Origin: Nitrospirota bacterium
Lineage (GTDB): Bacteria; Nitrospirota; Thermodesulfovibrionia; Thermodesulfovibrionales; Dissulfurispiraceae
DNA length: 64,000 nt
NCBI GenBank assembly: GCA_009773415.1
Contig: WSNO01000008.1
Span: 9,600-73,599, forward strand
Direction of reading: 5' to 3'
Numbering within the stretch: the first letter of the stretch is position 1; each line of letters opens with the position of its first letter. The translations under genes and the position numbers were made by a program. Under the pieces are notes generated by a model. It saw only the letters and a program-made list of their open reading frames with translations. It had not been told where the DNA came from and searched no databases. Positions 15,585 to 21,765 of this stretch are shown one piece after another.

Positions 15585-16166
15585 CTATCGGAAATAATAG
15601 TGCCAGACAAGAAAGAGAAGAAACAGCGCAAGGCTGAATGCCTCTCCGAGCAAAATAAAAATAGTGATGCGGCGGCCAAAAGGACTCATTCTGAGCCACA
15701 AGCGGTCTACAAAATATTTCCAGAGCCGGCTGCGCAGCGTCCGGCGGCTTGTCACCACAAGATAGTTGCCGACACTCCTGAGCCACAGGTTAATCTCGGT
15801 CTTGTCGTCATCAGACAGCGCGGATTCTGATTCTTCCTCATAGAGAAGTTTTGTTGCAGAACCTTGCGGCTGAACGGCAATGCTGAACTTTCGATTCTGC
15901 GTTCCCTCAAGCGCCAGCGCGAGGCGCTCTCCTTCGACGAGGTCCGTGATGCTGACCTGATACGCAACCTGTTCCTCACTGCGGTCGTACCTGACCGTCA
16001 CGGCAAAGGTGCTGCCCTGCGTGAAAACATACTTCCCGAAGGATTCGACGTCCCACTGGGGATTGAGACGAAACCATCGTTCCAGATCAGAAAAAAAGGC
16101 AAACACCCTTTGGGGAGGAAGTGCCAAAACGAGAGAATACGAGTAGTTCATGCCTTTATCGGACAA
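15585..16166 (-). CDS. SRPBCC (START/polyketide-cyclase-like) domain protein with C-terminal TM helix
   Basis: The N-terminal pattern (LPPQRVFAFFSDLERWFRLNPQW) is SRPBCC-like, and the C-terminal tail is hydrophobic. The start overlaps the upstream USP stop. Confidence 0.55.
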   Translation of the reverse strand: MSDKGMNYSYSLVLALPPQRVFAFFSDLERWFRLNPQWDVESFGKYVFTQGSTFAVTVRYDRSEEQVAYQVSITDLVEGERLALALEGTQNRKFSIAVQPQGSATKLLYEEESESALSDDDKTEINLWLRSVGNYLVVTSRRTLRSRLWKYFVDRLWLRMSPFGRRITIFILLGEAFSLALFLLFLVWHYYFR

Positions 16167-16605
16167 CCAGCAGGGGGATCGGGCACTTCCTGAAGACTTT
16201 CTCGGAAAGCTTGAACGATTCGAAGCGCTCTTTCCATCCTTTCAGAACCTTCGATCCCATGACAACCATATCATAGGAATTATCATCAAGCTCTTTCAGA
16301 ATTTCCTCAGTCGGGTCGCCATAGCGCAGCAGAACGGATACAGGAAGCCCGGTTTCTGCTGCGCGTGCCGCAAATGCTGCAACAGCAGCTTCCCCCTCGG
16401 CCTGAAGACTTTTATCCAGATGTTCGCGGCACTCATCACGATTGACGGCGTATATTTCATTGGTGAATTTCTTCAGAAAAGGGTCAACAACGTGGAGCGC
16501 CGTTACGGAAGCTCCGATGCCGAGGCTGATAGTCAGCGCATATTCTTCAGCTTTTTTTGTCTGCTCCTCGCCGTCCGTGCACAGCAGAATTTTTTTCATT
16601 TCCAT
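16156..16605 (-). CDS. Universal stress protein (UspA family)
   Basis: KKILLCTDGEE...ALHVVD...MVVMGSK... is a USP fold pattern. An AGGAG RBS lies 6 nt upstream. Confidence 0.85.
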   Translation of the reverse strand: MEMKKILLCTDGEEQTKKAEEYALTISLGIGASVTALHVVDPFLKKFTNEIYAVNRDECREHLDKSLQAEGEAAVAAFAARAAETGLPVSVLLRYGDPTEEILKELDDNSYDMVVMGSKVLKGWKERFESFKLSEKVFRKCPIPLLVVR

Positions 16606-16675
16606 TCATCGCTCCTAAAAAACGGGACATATCCCATTATACGGGATATGTCCCAAAACCCAGAAGGAGGGTGGG

Positions 16676-18001
16676 TTACTGCTTTACCTGAAACACTTCA
16701 GTGCCGAGCAGAATGACCGCAACTGCCGCAAGCACCGCTTTTGCCGTTGCCGCGGTAAAGCCGATGACGAATGCCTTGCCGCCGGCCTTGCGCAGGTCTT
16801 CAAACGCAATGTTTAAACCGACGCCGGCAAACCCGATTGCAAAGAACACCTTCAGAAGCTCTCTGCCGAGAATGTTTTTCTGTTCAGTAGAGAACACGCC
16901 CATTTCGTTAAGCGTAACCATCACAAAGAACCCGAGAATAAAGACCGGGAACTTGTCCTTGATAACCTGCCATGCGTTCAGTTTCTGTCCGGCTGCTTTA
17001 CCTGCTGCAGTTGCAGGCTTGATAACGTAGAAGTAAATTGCCCAAATAACGACGAGCGGAATGAACCCGACGCGCACAATGTTGATGATATTGGCGGTCA
17101 GCAGCGCTTCATGCCCGTACCACGATGCCGCGGCGACAAGCTGCGCGGTATTCAGAATAGCCGTCCCGACCCATGCGCCGAAGACCGGCTGCGACATGCC
17201 GAGCGCCTGCCCGATATACGGAAAGGTAAACAGACAGAGCGTGCCGAAGAGAAGAATCGTGCCTATTGCGTAAAAAAAGTCACGCGGCTTGGCATTGACG
17301 ACCGGGGCCGCCGCCACCGCTGCAGACACTCCGCAAACGCCGACGCCTGCACCCATAACACCTGCCAACCCATCATCGATATTCGACTTTCGCCCCCAGT
17401 ACGAAATGAGGATCTGGGTTCCCATGACAAACGCGATAACCAGAGCAAGCCCAAAGGCTCCGACCTTCAGAACATCGGACCACAAGTAAAATGCCCCGAG
17501 AATAACGATGCCGGGTTTAATGATTGGCCGCGCCGCAATGGTTCCTGCCTGGAAGATTTTCGGCAATCCGATGGTATTCCGTACAAACATGCCGCCGAGC
17601 AGAAGCACGGCAACGTAGGTCAGCTGAAACTGCAGCACCCGTTCGCCAACAGTGTATTTGAAGGGCATTTCCTTGGTCAGGGCAAGCTGTTCATAGTCCT
17701 CTTTCGGAAGAACCGTTGAGCGGCGGGGCTTCTGCTTCGCCTTGCCCTCTTCGAATTCCTTCATTTTTGCCTTGAAGCTCTCATCCTTTTTTGCCATGTA
17801 TTCTGCAAAAGGCAGAATGGGTTTCCCTTCTTTTTCCGCCTTTAGTATTACCGCTGCCTCTTTCTGGTTGCTTGCCCAGACACTGGTCATCTCATCCCAC
17901 TGAAGTGCCAGCCAGCCGAGCATAACGCACAGCAACAGACCGGGCAACATCTTGGGAAGCGACTTGAGACTGAAATCTACGCCAATACCTCCGCCTGCCA
18001 T
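16676..18001 (-). CDS. YeiH/UPF0324-family membrane transporter (putative sulfate-exporter family) with an extra hydrophilic loop after TM1
   Basis: GAGVGVCGVSAAVAAAPVVNA, LNTAQLVAAA and GLNIAFEDLRKAGGKAF align with E. coli YeiH (GAGSSICGAAAVLATEPVVKA, HEVAQVVAAG, GLTTHVSALKKAGAKP). Confidence 0.8.
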   Translation of the reverse strand: MAGGGIGVDFSLKSLPKMLPGLLLCVMLGWLALQWDEMTSVWASNQKEAAVILKAEKEGKPILPFAEYMAKKDESFKAKMKEFEEGKAKQKPRRSTVLPKEDYEQLALTKEMPFKYTVGERVLQFQLTYVAVLLLGGMFVRNTIGLPKIFQAGTIAARPIIKPGIVILGAFYLWSDVLKVGAFGLALVIAFVMGTQILISYWGRKSNIDDGLAGVMGAGVGVCGVSAAVAAAPVVNAKPRDFFYAIGTILLFGTLCLFTFPYIGQALGMSQPVFGAWVGTAILNTAQLVAAASWYGHEALLTANIINIVRVGFIPLVVIWAIYFYVIKPATAAGKAAGQKLNAWQVIKDKFPVFILGFFVMVTLNEMGVFSTEQKNILGRELLKVFFAIGFAGVGLNIAFEDLRKAGGKAFVIGFTAATAKAVLAAVAVILLGTEVFQVKQ

Positions 18002-18023
18002 TGTATTCCTCCTCTTCTATATT

Positions 18024-18182
18024 TTAAATAAACAGTGATTTATAGAATTTCGGGCCGATGATCCCGGCAACCACCAGCAGTACGGTAATGGTTGAAATGA
18101 TCAGGACGACAAAATCTTCCTTCCGTTCTGCCGAAAAGGTGCTTGCCGCCTTGTCTTTCCACTCCTGGTTCTGATCGGACAT
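18024..18182 (-). CDS. Small (52 aa) single-TM membrane protein, below the ORF-track cutoff
   Basis: The ATG at 18182 has a GGAGGAAAGAAT RBS. The product is MSDQNQEWKDKAASTFSAERKEDFVVLIISTITVLLVVAGIIGPKFYKSLFI, and the gene fills the gap between the USP and YeiH-like genes. Confidence 0.45.
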   Translation of the reverse strand: MSDQNQEWKDKAASTFSAERKEDFVVLIISTITVLLVVAGIIGPKFYKSLFI

Positions 18183-18206
18183 ATTCTTTCCTCCATCTTT
18201 CTTTCG

Positions 18207-18626
18207 TTATTTGACAACCGTTACCGGACAGGGCGCCCACTCAACGAGTCGGGCAGACACGCTTCCCATTGCAAGTTTCTTTACACCGTGCTTGCCATGC
18301 GAGGCAACGATGATTTCATCGGCCTTTTCCTGCCTGGCAACCTCGATAATTGCCTCAGCCGGACTTCCTTTTTCAATGATGCCGCGGGCCGCCACCCCTG
18401 CGGCTGCCGTTTTCGCGAGAGCGGCCTTCATGATCCCCTCTGCCTCCTTCATGACAAGCGTCGAGATGGTATCACAATCGACCTCAGCGAGCCCTATAGG
18501 GCACCACTCTTCAGCAATGCTCACAACAATGATTTCGGCTGGACCTGCCTTTGCTGCTTCTATTGCCCGGTCAAGCGACTTCCCTGCTTCCTGCGACCCG
18601 TCCGTTGCAACAAGGATTTTTTTCAT
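18207..18626 (-). CDS. Universal stress protein (UspA family)
   Basis: MKKILVATDGSQEAGKSLDRAIE...IIVASHGKHGVKKLAMGSVSARLV. The ATG at 18626 has a GAGGAGG RBS. The longer track ORF (to 18941) would run over the promoter and into the regulator gene. Confidence 0.85.
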   Translation of the reverse strand: MKKILVATDGSQEAGKSLDRAIEAAKAGPAEIIVVSIAEEWCPIGLAEVDCDTISTLVMKEAEGIMKAALAKTAAAGVAARGIIEKGSPAEAIIEVARQEKADEIIVASHGKHGVKKLAMGSVSARLVEWAPCPVTVVK

Positions 18627-18694
18627 GACTGCGCCTCCTCTGGTTGGACATGCATTTCGGCACGCCAGCTGATTTACAGCTGTATGGAGCAGAA

Positions 18695-18710
18695 TGCAAA
18701 TCAGGTGCCA
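18695..18710 (-). promoter_or_regulatory. Sigma-54 (-24/-12) promoter, perfect consensus
   Basis: The minus strand reads TGGCAC-CTGAT-TTGCA, 70 nt upstream of the USP ATG. It sits directly downstream of a sigma-54 response-regulator gene. Confidence 0.8.
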
Positions 18711-18766
18711 GGGAATTAACCAGTTGATTATTGAAGGTAATTTAAAAAAAGCGCGGGAGATCTGAG

Positions 18767-18811
18767 CCCGATCGGGAACGGTGGAAAGGATTACTGTTCC
18801 CGATCGGGAAC
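18767..18811. promoter_or_regulatory. Two copies of a CCCGATCGGGAAC palindrome (candidate enhancer/UAS; could alternatively fold as a terminator hairpin)
   Basis: The copies are CCCGATCGGGAAC at 18767..18779 and GTTCCCGATCGGGAAC at 18796..18811. Their centres are 32 bp apart, at about -88 and -120 from the predicted start of the sigma-54 promoter. Confidence 0.4.
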
Positions 18812-20167
18812 ATCCTCTATTCCGTAATCTTTCATTTTTTTCCAGAGCACCTTGCGGCTGATACCGAGAAGTTCCGCTGCCTCTTGCTTTTTTCCGGACG
18901 TGTCCTGCAGGGCTTTCAGGATACGCCTCTTTTCGAAACACCGGACGCTCTCCTCAAGCGAAAGGGGCGCTGAACCGCATGCCGACTCCTGCGCTCCCTG
19001 CAGCATTTCATCAGGAAGAACACGCACATCGACAACCCCGTCTTTTGCGAAAATTACGGCGCGCTCGAGGGCATGTTTCAGCTCGCGGACATTTCCGGGG
19101 TAACGATACGACAACAGCATGTCATATGCCTGCGGCGTAACCGCAAGGCTTCCCTTGTTGAACTGCTTTGAAAAGACCCGGACGAAATGGTCGATAAAAT
19201 AAGGGATATCCTCCGGACGTTCGCGCAGCGGCGGAAGCTTGATAGGAACGACATTGATGCGATAAAACAGATCGCTTCGAAAGGTTCCGGCAGCCACGCA
19301 CTCTTTAAGGTTCTTGCCCGAAGCGCAAATAGTACGAACATCGACCGGAATAGGCACATTGCTTCCAAGCCGGGTTACCGTTTTTTCTTCCAGCACGCGC
19401 AGCAGCTTCGGCTGAAGCGCCGGCGGAATATCGGCAATCTCATCGAAAAAAATCGACCCGCCATGTGCAAATTCGAACCTGCCTTTTCTCATTTCATGGG
19501 CCCCGGTAAACGCTCCTTTTTCCGCGCCGAAAAGCTCCGACTCAAACAGATTCTCCGGCATGGCAGCACAATTGATTTTTATAAACGGCTTATCGCTCCG
19601 GCCGCTCAGACCGTGGACAGCATTTGCGACCAGCTCTTTTCCGGTGCCGCTCTCTCCCTGAATCAGAACCGGAACATCAGTTGCTGCAACGGCCGCTGTC
19701 CGGTCGAACACATCCATCATTGCCGGACTTGCCCCGATAAAATCGGCAAACCCTCGCCTCTCTTTCAGGCTTTCACGGAGGCGAAAGACCTCATCTTCCA
19801 GCTTCCGGTATTTCAGATACCGTTCTACCGCGACAATCAGCTCGTCATTTGAAAACGGTTTCGCGATGTAGTCGAATGCGCCTTCCTTGATGGCCTTAAC
19901 CGCATCCCTTACCTCTGCATATGCGGTAATTATGATGACACCAGCATTCGGGGCTTTTTCGCGCGCGACCTCAAGGATTTCAAATCCGCTGCGCCGGGGC
20001 AATTTCAGATCGGTAATAATGAGATCAAAGCGCTCCCGGAGGATCGCATCAATGCCGTGATCCCCGTCCGCGCAGGGAGAAACGGCAAACCCTTGAGAAG
20101 TCAGGAAATGCTGCATGCCGAGCCGCATGGAAGGCTCATCCTCGATAAGCAGTATCTTTATTTTCAT
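18791..20167 (-). CDS. Sigma-54-dependent response regulator (REC-AAA+-HTH, NtrC family)
   Basis: It has a REC domain (LIITDLKLP), [20 protein letters not shown] and a C-terminal Fis-type HTH. Confidence 0.92.
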   Translation of the reverse strand: MKIKILLIEDEPSMRLGMQHFLTSQGFAVSPCADGDHGIDAILRERFDLIITDLKLPRRSGFEILEVAREKAPNAGVIIITAYAEVRDAVKAIKEGAFDYIAKPFSNDELIVAVERYLKYRKLEDEVFRLRESLKERRGFADFIGASPAMMDVFDRTAAVAATDVPVLIQGESGTGKELVANAVHGLSGRSDKPFIKINCAAMPENLFESELFGAEKGAFTGAHEMRKGRFEFAHGGSIFFDEIADIPPALQPKLLRVLEEKTVTRLGSNVPIPVDVRTICASGKNLKECVAAGTFRSDLFYRINVVPIKLPPLRERPEDIPYFIDHFVRVFSKQFNKGSLAVTPQAYDMLLSYRYPGNVRELKHALERAVIFAKDGVVDVRVLPDEMLQGAQESACGSAPLSLEESVRCFEKRRILKALQDTSGKKQEAAELLGISRKVLWKKMKDYGIEDVPDREQ

Positions 20168-21765
20168 GGAGCTGTCGGGAATTTCACCAGAAAAACCGTG
20201 CCTTCCGATGATGTTTTTACTTCAATAGTCCCGCGATGCTGTTCAATGATAGCCTTGCTGACCGTGAGGCCGATTCCCGTTCCCTCCCCGACATCTTTAG
20301 TGGTAAAAAAGGGATCGAAAATGTGTTCCAGGATATCGGGCCGGATGCCTGGACCGGTGTCGGCGACGCTCACGACGCAAAAAGATCCCTCCTGCAGCGA
20401 AGCAACCGTAATGCTCCCCCTTGGCGGCACTGCGTGGATTGCGTTGAGAATAAGATTCAGAAAGACCTGCTCCAGCTTGTTTGCATCTGCCCGAATGCCG
20501 GGAAGATCTTCGGCAAGCTCAGCTTTTAAATGGATCCCCTTTTTCTCAATAATGAAATCAGTGAGCTGCAGAACGTTCTGCACAATCTCTTTCAGTGAAA
20601 CGTTCTGCATCAATAGCGGTGAGTTTTTTGAATAATCAAGCAACTGCCGCACAATTGTCTGGATGCGGTCCAGCCCGTCGTTCACCAATCGAATGTGCTC
20701 CTCGCGCGTCTGCTCATCCATCGGCGTCTTGAGCAGATTATTGAAGCACAGCTTGATACCGCCGAGCGGGTTGTTGATTTCGTGAGCCACTCCTGCCGAC
20801 AGCTGCCCAAGTGCGGCCAGCTTCTCGGTCTGCATCATCTGTTTTTCAAGGGCTGCGGCGGCCCGCACTTTTTCCTGCGCATCATGGAGGTGCTGGGCAA
20901 GCATGTTGAATGACGCTGTGAGGTTGCCTATCTCGTCAGGCCGGTCCGCGGGACGCTCCGCACGCAAAGGCTCCTTCCCGTCGGCAATATTTCTGAAGGT
21001 GCGAGAAAGTTTGTACAGCGGCTTGCTGACCAGCAGACGAAATGTGACATACAGACCTGAAAACAGCGCCGTAAGCGCCAGAAGTCCGAACAAAAACGTA
21101 TCGAAAGCAAATTTCCTTACCTGGGCGAACGCAACGTCGAGAGGGATTGCGACCGACTCGACGCCGACGACCGCATCAGCTTTCCAGCCGAACATTGAGC
21201 CGTCTCCGTAGAGCTTCCGCACGGTCTTCGGGATAGTGGCTGAACTGCCGTGGCACCAGAGACAGCTGACATCGGATATGACGGGGCGAACCGACATGAG
21301 CATGTCCCGGCCGCCTGCCGTTTCGATTCCCTGCCACAGGAGAATCTTGGGGTTCTCGTTGAAATGCCGGATCATCCTGCTTTCAAAATCGTTTGCCTTG
21401 TTGGCAGGGTTCAGCGGAGAGTCCGAGGTGCGGCGAAACTGATATTCGGGAAGATCCTTGTTAAAGCGCCGCATTACCTGCTGGGTAACATGCGTGGTGG
21501 ACATCGCTTCGATGACGAATTCCTCTTCAGATTTCGACTCGCGGAGAAGTTGATACATTTTCGGACGCAGGGTATCCCGAACGTACCCCCCGAGAGCTTT
21601 CGTGTGAGACATGATTATCTGGGTTTTGTCCTTGGCGTCCTGAACTGCCTGCTGCTTGAGATAGAAATAGAGCGAAATCGAAAGCACGGCACAAACCACG
21701 AACAGCAATCCGCCCATTGCAAGACTGAACTTGAAACCGAGGCTGTACCCCAGGCGCTTTAACAT
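20164..21765 (-). CDS. Sensor histidine kinase with periplasmic CXXCH heme-type sensor domain (DUF3365-like), HAMP, HisKA, HATPase
   Basis: TM1 is followed by a ~180-aa loop containing CLWCH (21250..21264), then TM2, HAMP, the H-box (SAGVAHEINNPL) and the N/G boxes. A 4-nt ATGA overlap links it to the regulator gene. Confidence 0.9.
   Translation of the reverse strand: MLKRLGYSLGFKFSLAMGGLLFVVCAVLSISLYFYLKQQAVQDAKDKTQIIMSHTKALGGYVRDTLRPKMYQLLRESKSEEEFVIEAMSTTHVTQQVMRRFNKDLPEYQFRRTSDSPLNPANKANDFESRMIRHFNENPKILLWQGIETAGGRDMLMSVRPVISDVSCLWCHGSSATIPKTVRKLYGDGSMFGWKADAVVGVESVAIPLDVAFAQVRKFAFDTFLFGLLALTALFSGLYVTFRLLVSKPLYKLSRTFRNIADGKEPLRAERPADRPDEIGNLTASFNMLAQHLHDAQEKVRAAAALEKQMMQTEKLAALGQLSAGVAHEINNPLGGIKLCFNNLLKTPMDEQTREEHIRLVNDGLDRIQTIVRQLLDYSKNSPLLMQNVSLKEIVQNVLQLTDFIIEKKGIHLKAELAEDLPGIRADANKLEQVFLNLILNAIHAVPPRGSITVASLQEGSFCVVSVADTGPGIRPDILEHIFDPFFTTKDVGEGTGIGLTVSKAIIEQHRGTIEVKTSSEGTVFLVKFPTAP

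Follow-up and report, generated by a model that had tools for sequence, protein, structure and literature searches.

A heme-Cache sensor kinase and sigma-54 regulator linked to a conserved five-gene cassette around a divergent PF03601 permease in a Nitrospirota bacterium

The DNA analyzed here (the window, 64 kb) is a stretch of contig WSNO01000008.1 (positions 9,600 to 73,599, forward strand) from the 2.46-Mb assembly GCA_009773415.1 of a Nitrospirota bacterium of the Dissulfurispiraceae, and the locus in question lies at window positions 15585-21765. It encodes a sensor histidine kinase with a periplasmic sCache_heme domain, a sigma-54-dependent bacterial enhancer-binding protein (bEBP), and a cassette of five genes in the order universal stress protein (USP), 52-amino-acid (aa) membrane protein, divergent PF03601 permease, USP, and tail-anchored SRPBCC protein. 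The seven open reading frames (ORFs) listed in a preliminary description of this DNA were all recovered on the minus strand. About 60 species of Nitrospirota, Desulfobacterota and Betaproteobacteria carry the cassette, and its link to the kinase and regulator recurs across phyla.

Domains were assigned with Pfam and NCBIfam profiles, and transmembrane (TM) helices were predicted from hydropathy. For the comparison between species, GTDB was surveyed using one genome per species, which gave 64 loci, and the presence of the cassette in these loci was determined by tblastn. Seven distinct metagenome neighbourhoods were examined in addition. The count for the small membrane protein covers 79 loci, that for the hairpin 55 non-redundant loci, and those for neighbouring genes 23 Nitrospirota, 16 Desulfobacterota-like and 26 Beta/Gammaproteobacteria loci, with a search radius of 7 kb. 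The features of the locus are as follows, in window coordinates.

20164-21765, minus strand: sensor histidine kinase, 533 aa, with TM1, sCache_heme (DUF3365/Tll0287), TM2, HAMP, HisKA and HATPase_c (Pfam).
21142-21657, minus strand: periplasmic sCache_heme domain, kinase residues 37-208 (Pfam PF11845).
21250-21264, minus strand: CLWCH, predicted c-type heme attachment motif, kinase residues 168-172 (direct sequence reading).
18791-20167, minus strand: NtrC-type sigma-54 enhancer-binding response regulator, 458 aa, with REC, AAA+ (Sigma54_activat) carrying GAFTGA, and HTH_8 (Pfam).
18796-18811, minus strand: candidate upstream activating sequence (UAS) 1, perfect palindrome GTTCCCGATCGGGAAC of the form GTTCCC-N4-GGGAAC, overlapping the last bEBP codons.
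18764-18779, minus strand: candidate UAS 2, half-degenerate copy GTTCCCGATCGGGCTC, 32 nucleotides (nt) downstream of UAS 1.
18695-18710, minus strand: predicted sigma-54 promoter TGGCACCTGATTTGCA, TGGCAC-N5-TTGCA (motif scan), 69 nt upstream of the USP1 ATG.
18207-18626, minus strand: USP1, 139 aa (PF00582, 100.5 bits), with the near-canonical nucleotide-binding motif A-x2-G-x9-G-S.
18024-18182, minus strand: 52-aa single-pass membrane protein, with the motif TFSAERKED, a TM helix, KSLF[FI], and a GGAGG ribosome-binding site.
16676-18001, minus strand: PF03601 (Cons_hypoth698/YeiH-like) permease, 441 aa, with one additional TM helix at the N-terminus and a charged loop of 87 aa (Pfam).
16617-16655, minus strand: 15-bp GC-rich hairpin followed by T6 (folding, z = -4.9), putative terminator or attenuator.
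16156-16605, minus strand: USP2, 149 aa (PF00582, 81 bits), lacking the G-x2-G-x9-G(S/T) motif.
15585-16166, minus strand: tail-anchored SRPBCC-fold protein, 193 aa, with the domain at residues 1-140, an amphipathic helix at 144-157, and a TM helix at 162-192.

For the sensor kinase, PF11845 was matched over its entire length (profile positions 1-144 of 144) at 115.8 bits (cut-off 24.1), within a periplasmic part of about 190 aa bounded by predicted TM helices at residues 14-32 and about 224-242. This agrees with the loop of about 180 aa and the DUF3365-like c-type heme sensor domain proposed in the preliminary description, and from the CLWCH motif we infer covalent attachment of heme c. The only Cys residues in the periplasmic part are those of the CXXCH pair, and the domain is therefore without an axial Cys. 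The catalytic core is nearest to those of ZraS and AtoS, and the cassette-linked kinases of Desulfobacterota carry additional PAS or GAF domains. When compared with the window domain, cassette-linked sensor domains from other phyla scored 118-213 bits against 37 bits for a paralog in the same genome, which indicates that sensor domain and cassette were kept together across phyla; by sequence, the cassette-linked domains are one group. The host genome encodes a second sCache_heme kinase, at C56:64340-64819, which at 37 bits falls outside the cassette clade.

Kinases fused to sCache_heme were recognised only in 2026 (bioRxiv 10.64898/2026.02.01.703092). According to the same preprint, an axial Cys marks the redox-type members, redox behaviour is seen in Tll0287 and a stand-alone Pseudomonas putida protein, and signalling-fused domains without axial Cys bind nitric oxide (NO) tightly and form no stable O2 complex; its text, as far as searched, names no target genes for the kinase-fused members (bioRxiv 10.64898/2026.02.01.703092). 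Because the window domain is without the axial Cys, as are the NO-binding signalling-type members, NO is the best-supported candidate for the kinase ligand, at a probability that we would place somewhat short of even, and a redox or sulfur species is possible. The term redox-sensed, used in the preliminary description, accordingly does not name the best-supported signal, as signalling-fused DUF3365 domains without axial Cys are described as sensors of NO and not of O2 (bioRxiv 10.64898/2026.02.01.703092).

The bEBP gene overlaps the kinase gene by 4 nt. GAFTGA was read within EKGAFTGAHE, and the scores against the AtoC, NtrC and ZraR models of NCBIfam were all below the equivalog cut-offs. A sigma-54 promoter had been placed between the bEBP gene and the five genes, and the motif scan bore this out, with a perfect match that is the only zero-mismatch occurrence of TGGCAC-N5-TTGCW in the window; rpoN is encoded in the host genome. 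The exact palindrome GTTCCC-N4-GGGAAC occurs once in the whole genome, at UAS 1. Of 10 Nitrospirota-type loci, 9 have it upstream of the cassette; the other 39 loci do not. Among the 20 loci that carry the two-component system, 13 show a -24/-12 motif ahead of the cassette, as do three Thermodesulfovibrio loci (L083, L086, L088) in which the fetched stretch holds no two-component system. The host genome encodes at least 20 full-length NtrC-type sigma-54 activator paralogs (tblastn; for example C2, C7, C20, C29 and C56), an unusually high density for its size.

An sCache_heme kinase and a bEBP were found within the search radius of the cassette in 9/23 Nitrospirota, 10/16 Desulfobacterota-like and 0/26 Beta/Gammaproteobacteria loci, that is, in 19 of 39 loci of the first two groups taken together. 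Their placement relative to the cassette is of four kinds (upstream co-directional, upstream divergent, downstream co-directional, downstream convergent), and the link between sensor, regulator and cassette is thus conserved but not fixed. The unit envisaged in the preliminary description, comprising heme kinase, sigma-54 regulator, promoter and five genes, was not refuted by a loss of synteny in this comparison, in which the cassette recurs in about 60 species, and the predicted wiring from kinase through regulator and sigma-54 to the cassette is as well supported as comparative genomics allows.

Within the cassette, the spacing from USP1 through the SRPBCC gene is 24, 22, 70 and -11 nt. The same order was observed in all seven metagenome neighbourhoods (one without USP1), with a small ORF of 49-56 aa and a last protein of about 190 aa, and the cassette was present in nearly all of the 64 GTDB loci, with USP1 occasionally lost. 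In one Thermodesulfovibrionales clade (L062, L070, L071, L073, L077), USP2 and the SRPBCC gene are located upstream of USP1. Nitrospirota carriers include Dissulfurispiraceae, with a 96%-identical locus in the GTDB set labelled as this family, other Thermodesulfovibrionales, and Thermodesulfovibrio (including the isolate sp. N1); further carriers are Caldimicrobium, Desulfobacca, Syntrophobacteraceae, Desulfomonile, Desulfobulbia and Desulfobacterales, as well as Rhodocyclaceae, Methyloversatilis, Thiobacillus and Hydrogenophilus. By lifestyle, the carriers are sulfate reducers, sulfur disproportionators and sulfur oxidisers.

The small single-TM ORF pointed out as unannotated is a real gene. 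A homolog lies directly upstream of the permease gene in 77/79 loci, and the alignment shows invariant E19, R20, E22 and D23 within TFSAERKED, followed by the TM helix and a KSLFF tail. No Pfam family matches the 52-aa protein, and a set of 1.84 billion representative proteins contains only 20 matching clusters, all of 42-95 aa. Given its near-constant position and the small number of matching clusters, the ORF is, on comparative evidence, a genuine and narrowly distributed gene that travels with this permease, and its product is probably a permease subunit. It represents a small membrane protein family that gene callers may miss owing to size.

The permease matched PF03601 at 168.1 bits (cut-off 24.5) over residues 126-413. 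TM1 was predicted at residues 15-33 and is followed by the Lys/Glu-rich loop of 87 aa (18 K/R, 14 D/E), close to the extra charged loop of about 80 aa noted earlier. Assignment of the protein to YeiH, on the other hand, did not stand: the YeiH model TIGR00698 (NCBIfam) gave 74.6 bits against a cut-off of 232.6, which rules the permease out as a YeiH ortholog, and it was therefore filed as a distinct PF03601 subfamily. Homologs 66-74% identical to it occur in Thermodesulfovibrionales, Acidobacteriota-labelled, Syntrophobacteraceae, Rhodocyclaceae and Gammaproteobacteria bins. In a sequence search of the PDB, no homolog of the permease was found, the sole match being a chance one to oxalyl-CoA decarboxylase (E = 0.007). 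PF03601/TIGR00698 corresponds to family 2.A.98 of the Transporter Classification (TC), the 'putative sulfate exporter' family. The view that the YeiH family is functionally unresolved is out of date, since Salmonella has been reported to owe its resistance to sulfite stress mainly to yeiH (bioRxiv 10.1101/2025.07.27.662810), and the YeiH homolog BP2808 of Bordetella pertussis to be a sulfite exporter (bioRxiv 10.64898/2026.04.22.720190). For the window permease, the export direction given in the preliminary description is not established.

A strong hairpin between the permease stop codon and the USP2 start codon was found in 53/55 loci, with a median dG of -21.4 kcal/mol and a median z of -4.1 versus shuffled sequences (z < -2 in 85% of loci). 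It often precedes a T-run, and the stem sequences vary, many of them starting GGG(G/A)CAT. Rfam gave no match in the region, and the 3' end of the window permease gene shows no sigma-70-like promoter. The T-run of the window hairpin is followed after only about 10 nt by the ribosome-binding site of USP2. Owing to the hairpin, the five genes are not a plain uninterrupted operon: the tight spacing reported in the preliminary description was upheld, and the single operon was qualified, as the conserved hairpin splits the genes into three plus two. The probable role of the hairpin is partial termination or attenuation, by which the two halves of the cassette would be made in a set ratio. At the base of the window hairpin (within 16600-16680), CUCCU pairs with the USP2 Shine-Dalgarno sequence AGGAG, as it does in the same-genus locus L021, and through this pairing the hairpin could also mask USP2 translation.

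Both USPs, described earlier as bracketing the transporter, scored above the PF00582 cut-off; the canonical ATP-binding motif of the family is G-x2-G-x9-G(S/T). In almost every locus, USP2 follows the permease gene. The SRPBCC gene overlaps USP2 by 11 nt in the window and is itself conserved in 50 loci. For the SRPBCC protein, the Pfam scores were below cut-off (AHSA1, 20.5 bits against 22.1; Polyketide_cyc2, 17.6 bits against 27.4). Its AlphaFold2 model has a helix-grip fold at a predicted local distance difference test score (pLDDT) of 94.9, and a Foldseek search of the PDB returned 313 matches at E<=1e-3, with a target-normalised TM-score of up to 0.77; almost all of the top 50 matches were SRPBCC, Bet v 1, START, AHSA1 or CoxG proteins, at a probability of 1.0. 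The membrane-tethered SRPBCC protein of the preliminary description thus has an SRPBCC/Bet v 1 fold and a C-terminal TM helix. An assignment of the USP2/SRPBCC pair to a type II toxin-antitoxin system with an Rv0910-type SRPBCC toxin was rejected (NF047960, 16.8 bits against a cut-off of 100). The USPs and the SRPBCC protein are probably cytoplasmic or membrane-bound regulators. Gating of the permease by the USPs would have a parallel in other transporters that are gated by USP domains, and the SRPBCC protein, whose fold is a ligand-binding one, may act on the permease likewise.

The genes that accompany the cassette in other lineages bear on its substrate. In 11 Nitrospirota-type loci, a secreted single-domain rhodanese is encoded between USP1 and the small protein; the host genome holds no close copy of this cassette-type rhodanese (best match, 38% identity over 105 aa). 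The rhodanese gene of a Thermodesulfovibrionales relative (L023:6535-7014, = L049) has an in-frame TGA at the position of the active-site Cys of L022 and L025 (FY-U-NGVQCWRS versus YCNGVLCWRS in relatives) and a hairpin about 15 nt downstream of the TGA, and its product is probably a selenocysteine rhodanese.

In sister genera (L026-L031), a related cassette, termed type II, is composed of a USP, a 530-aa PF03601 protein 40-45% identical to the window permease, a USP, a secreted rhodanese, and an SRPBCC-TM protein. In L026, L027, L030 and L031 it is preceded by an orthologous sCache_heme kinase and bEBP (61-67% identical), and all four of these loci have twin GTTCCC-N4-GGGAAC palindromes upstream; TGG(C/T)AT-N5-TTGC[AT] was present in three of the four, the extracted L031 stretch showing the palindromes only. 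No separate small ORF was seen in type II loci L026-L030, and the longer N-terminus of the type II permease may replace the small protein. The 602-aa PF03601 protein at L026:8085-9893 starts with a segment resembling the small protein (ISEDW, TM helix), followed by an extra domain and the permease core, and a 132-aa protein at L031:6800-7198 has the small-protein motif (FKSDRHEDW, TM helix) and a C-terminal extension; on a similarity that is short and weak, these may be fusions linking the small protein to PF03601 permeases.

In Beta- and Gammaproteobacteria, a kinase of Phosphonate-bd/HisKA/HATPase architecture, with the Phosphonate-bd domain in the periplasm, and a NarL/LuxR regulator adjoin the cassette in 13/26 loci, divergently where inspected. 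This architecture defines TtrS and ThsS, sensors of tetrathionate and thiosulfate (PMC5408782). Two of these loci (L032 and L103, Thiobacillus-like) have ttrBCA-like genes beside the cassette, and the other eleven have none within 7 kb. Between the ttrBCA-like genes and the cassette of L032 and L103 lies a gene for a stand-alone ATP-synthase epsilon-like protein (PF02823, 142 aa), with a homolog in L058. A Crp/Fnr-family gene takes the place of the kinase-regulator pair beside the cassette in two betaproteobacterial loci, and a scan for FNR boxes upstream of betaproteobacterial cassettes gave one perfect site (Hydrogenophilus, L052) and otherwise weak matches. TauE/SafE permeases neighbour the cassette in 8 loci; some of those in Rhodocyclaceae loci are fused to USP domains.

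In Rhodocyclaceae loci L060, L067, L080, L104, L106 and L107, a single-domain response regulator, a dCache_1 kinase and TauE/SafE permeases adjoin the cassette, together with a 229-aa membrane protein and a PPDK_N/PEP-utilizer protein, one of the TauE/SafE permeases being fused to tandem USPs. By annotation alone, this set parallels the "nitrate cluster" DVU0245-0251 of Desulfovibrio, disruption of which leads to nitrate resistance (PMC4001038). A conserved block of about 50 nt, TTTGTAAATTGAGCATTTCGTGTAGCCGG.TAATCGAAC.GCCAATAGC, was seen about 60-110 nt upstream of USP1 in Rhodocyclaceae loci L056, L059, L063, L067, L068, L080, L084 and L102; it is present where the TtrS-like/NarL pair neighbours the cassette and may be the operator or promoter region for the NarL-type regulator.

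Taken together, we consider it probable, though by no means assured, that the locus is a dedicated signal-to-transport module in which a heme sensor and a sigma-54 switch control a sulfur-oxyanion permease cassette. In the proposed sequence of events, the sCache_heme domain would detect a small heme ligand, for which the published homologs point to NO, and the kinase would phosphorylate the NtrC-type regulator; the regulator would then bind the two GTTCCC-N4-GGGAAC palindromes and activate sigma-54 RNA polymerase at TGGCAC-N5-TTGCA. The resulting transcript would span USP1, the 52-aa protein and the permease, with USP2 and the SRPBCC gene after the hairpin, and termination of part of the transcripts there would fix the ratio of the two halves. 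The permease, with the 52-aa protein as its likely subunit, would move sulfite or a related oxyanion (thiosulfate, tetrathionate or sulfate), regulated from the cytoplasm or membrane by the two USPs and the SRPBCC protein. A sulfur oxyanion is our best guess for the substrate, with a chance at or slightly below even. It draws on the sulfite data for PF03601 proteins, on the neighbouring genes (rhodanese, TtrS/ThsS-type sensors, ttrBCA, TauE) and on the sulfur-cycling lifestyles of the carriers.

Several observations weigh against this interpretation. The permease is far from true YeiH, which makes transfer of the substrate by homology weak, and its AlphaFold2 model, built from a 15-sequence alignment, is unusable (pLDDT 48.8), so that nothing can be inferred about the binding site. 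The rhodanese that supports a sulfur substrate is absent from the window cassette and from those of its genus. The case for NO depends on a single characterised Pseudomonas protein, and about half of the anaerobe loci are without an adjacent two-component system, many of these contigs being short. The hairpin and T-run could also terminate transcription fully, which would place USP2 and the SRPBCC gene outside the regulon. Lastly, to join NO sensing to a sulfur transporter something further must be assumed, such as a build-up of sulfite when dissimilatory sulfite reductase is blocked by NO or nitrite. Both are known inhibitors of this enzyme, and sulfite export under NO stress would be coherent with that inhibition.

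The main alternatives differ in what is sensed, what is moved, or which genes are controlled. If the module served nitrosative stress, the sensor would detect NO and the permease would move nitrite, nitrate or another NO-stress solute, in keeping with the NO-sensing signalling-type sCache_heme domains, the Crp/Fnr-family regulators flanking the cassette in two betaproteobacterial loci, the many carriers that are denitrifying Rhodocyclaceae or Thiobacillus, and the Rhodocyclaceae TauE/kinase/regulator/PPDK_N set with its annotated likeness to the Desulfovibrio cluster. No nrf, nor, hcp or nir was seen beside any cassette in the neighbourhoods examined, however, while the rhodanese, the TtrS/ThsS-type sensors and the YeiH experiments point to sulfur, and sulfate reducers and disproportionators do not respire nitrogen oxides; we regard this account as improbable. 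Slightly more credible, but still unlikely, is the version of the preliminary description, in which the heme domain would report periplasmic redox potential or oxygen to a general stress or export module; what is moved would then be unrelated to sulfur, for instance an organic anion, bicarbonate or an osmolyte. Its appeal lies in the redox behaviour of Tll0287 and the stand-alone P. putida protein, the general stress role suggested by two USPs, and the very diverse substrates of the CPA/AT superfamily to which PF03601 belongs, but the window domain is without the axial Cys of redox-type members, signalling-type members gave no stable O2 complex, and sulfur-related neighbours recur in independent lineages.

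A further alternative concerns the transcript, with the two-component system driving USP1, the small protein and the permease only, and USP2 and the SRPBCC gene expressed independently after a full terminator. The 15-bp stem with T6, recurring in 53 of the 55 loci, and the Thermodesulfovibrionales clade with USP2-SRPBCC upstream of USP1 would suit such a division, but against it stand the roughly 10 nt between T-run and ribosome-binding site and the lack of a sigma-70-like promoter in the 3' end of the permease gene. USP2-SRPBCC is also kept beside the cassette nearly everywhere, even where rearranged, which speaks for a common function however the genes are transcribed. Two separate units are, in our judgement, as improbable as the nitrosative account. 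A bolder extension of the module interpretation, which we think has a small chance of being right, is that the five proteins form one multi-subunit transporter, the long-sought sulfite/thiosulfate route, and that the heme kinases sense sulfite, sulfide or polysulfide and not NO.

Sulfite or thiosulfate has to be taken up by sulfate reducers and disproportionators, whereas rDsr-type oxidisers need export; to our knowledge, little has been established about how these anions pass the membrane in dissimilatory sulfur metabolism. The extended proposal, if true, would supply the passage of sulfite and thiosulfate across the inner membrane in all three groups. It would also add a new class of ligands for Cache_heme sensors, and the cassette-linked kinases would do the work that TtrS/ThsS-type sensors do in Betaproteobacteria. 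In the module interpretation itself, the cassette is a candidate sulfur oxyanion transporter with its own accessory proteins, horizontally spread and mainly found in sulfur-cycling bacteria. The predicted operator, promoter and five target genes would give sCache_heme kinases their first concrete target regulon; being defined and conserved, it makes the physiological role of this sensor testable. Occurrence of the same cassette under three unrelated sensor types (heme-Cache kinase, TtrS-like kinase, Crp/Fnr) further offers a natural experiment.

Each part of the locus is of a known kind, namely an sCache_heme kinase, an NtrC-type bEBP, a PF03601 permease, USPs, and an SRPBCC protein. No description of the cassette was found in the literature on PF03601 or on sulfate exporters in disproportionators, and within the literature searched, the fixed five-gene cassette with its dedicated small membrane protein and internal hairpin appears undescribed, as do the cassette-specific heme-sensor clade and its swap for TtrS-like or Crp-type regulators elsewhere.

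Among characterised regulatory systems, ZraSR, AtoSC and NtrBC share with the window a regulator composed of REC, AAA+ with GAFTGA, and HTH_8, and tandem palindromic UAS about 60-100 nt upstream of a -24/-12 promoter, and the kinase core is nearest to ZraS/AtoS; the sensor domain and the target genes differ, as do the equivalog scores, all below cut-off. TeaD is a USP that regulates the TeaABC TRAP transporter, and TeaD-TeaABC, like the USP-SulP and USP-TauE fusions, has in common with the cassette a nucleotide-binding USP encoded with or fused to an anion transporter, whereas the cassette has two stand-alone USPs, only one of them with an ATP-binding motif, and an SRPBCC partner. YeiE-YeiH of Salmonella and BP2808 share the PF03601 core, inducible expression (predicted here), and a link to sulfur oxyanions; by comparison, the window permease has the extra N-terminal TM helix and a charged loop of 80-100 aa, scores below the YeiH cut-off, and comes with a membrane protein of about 50 aa, two USPs and a tail-anchored SRPBCC protein, and the predicted control is by two-component systems in the cassette family, as against a LysR regulator in YeiE-YeiH. 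TtrSR and ThsSR (PMC5408782) have the kinase architecture of the betaproteobacterial cassette neighbours, the cassettes of L032 and L103 being placed between ttrBCA-like and ttrSR-like genes, and the window has no such system. The closest counterpart of the sensor is the Cache_heme-HAMP NO receptor of Pseudomonas azotoformans (bioRxiv 10.64898/2026.02.01.703092; 10.64898/2026.05.25.727664), in which, as in the window kinase, a periplasmic CXXCH Cache domain without axial Cys lies between two TM helices and is followed by HAMP; the output differs, as the window protein continues into a HisKA/HATPase kinase paired with a sigma-54 bEBP, whereas the P. azotoformans receptor is HAMP-only and docks a Ser/Thr kinase.

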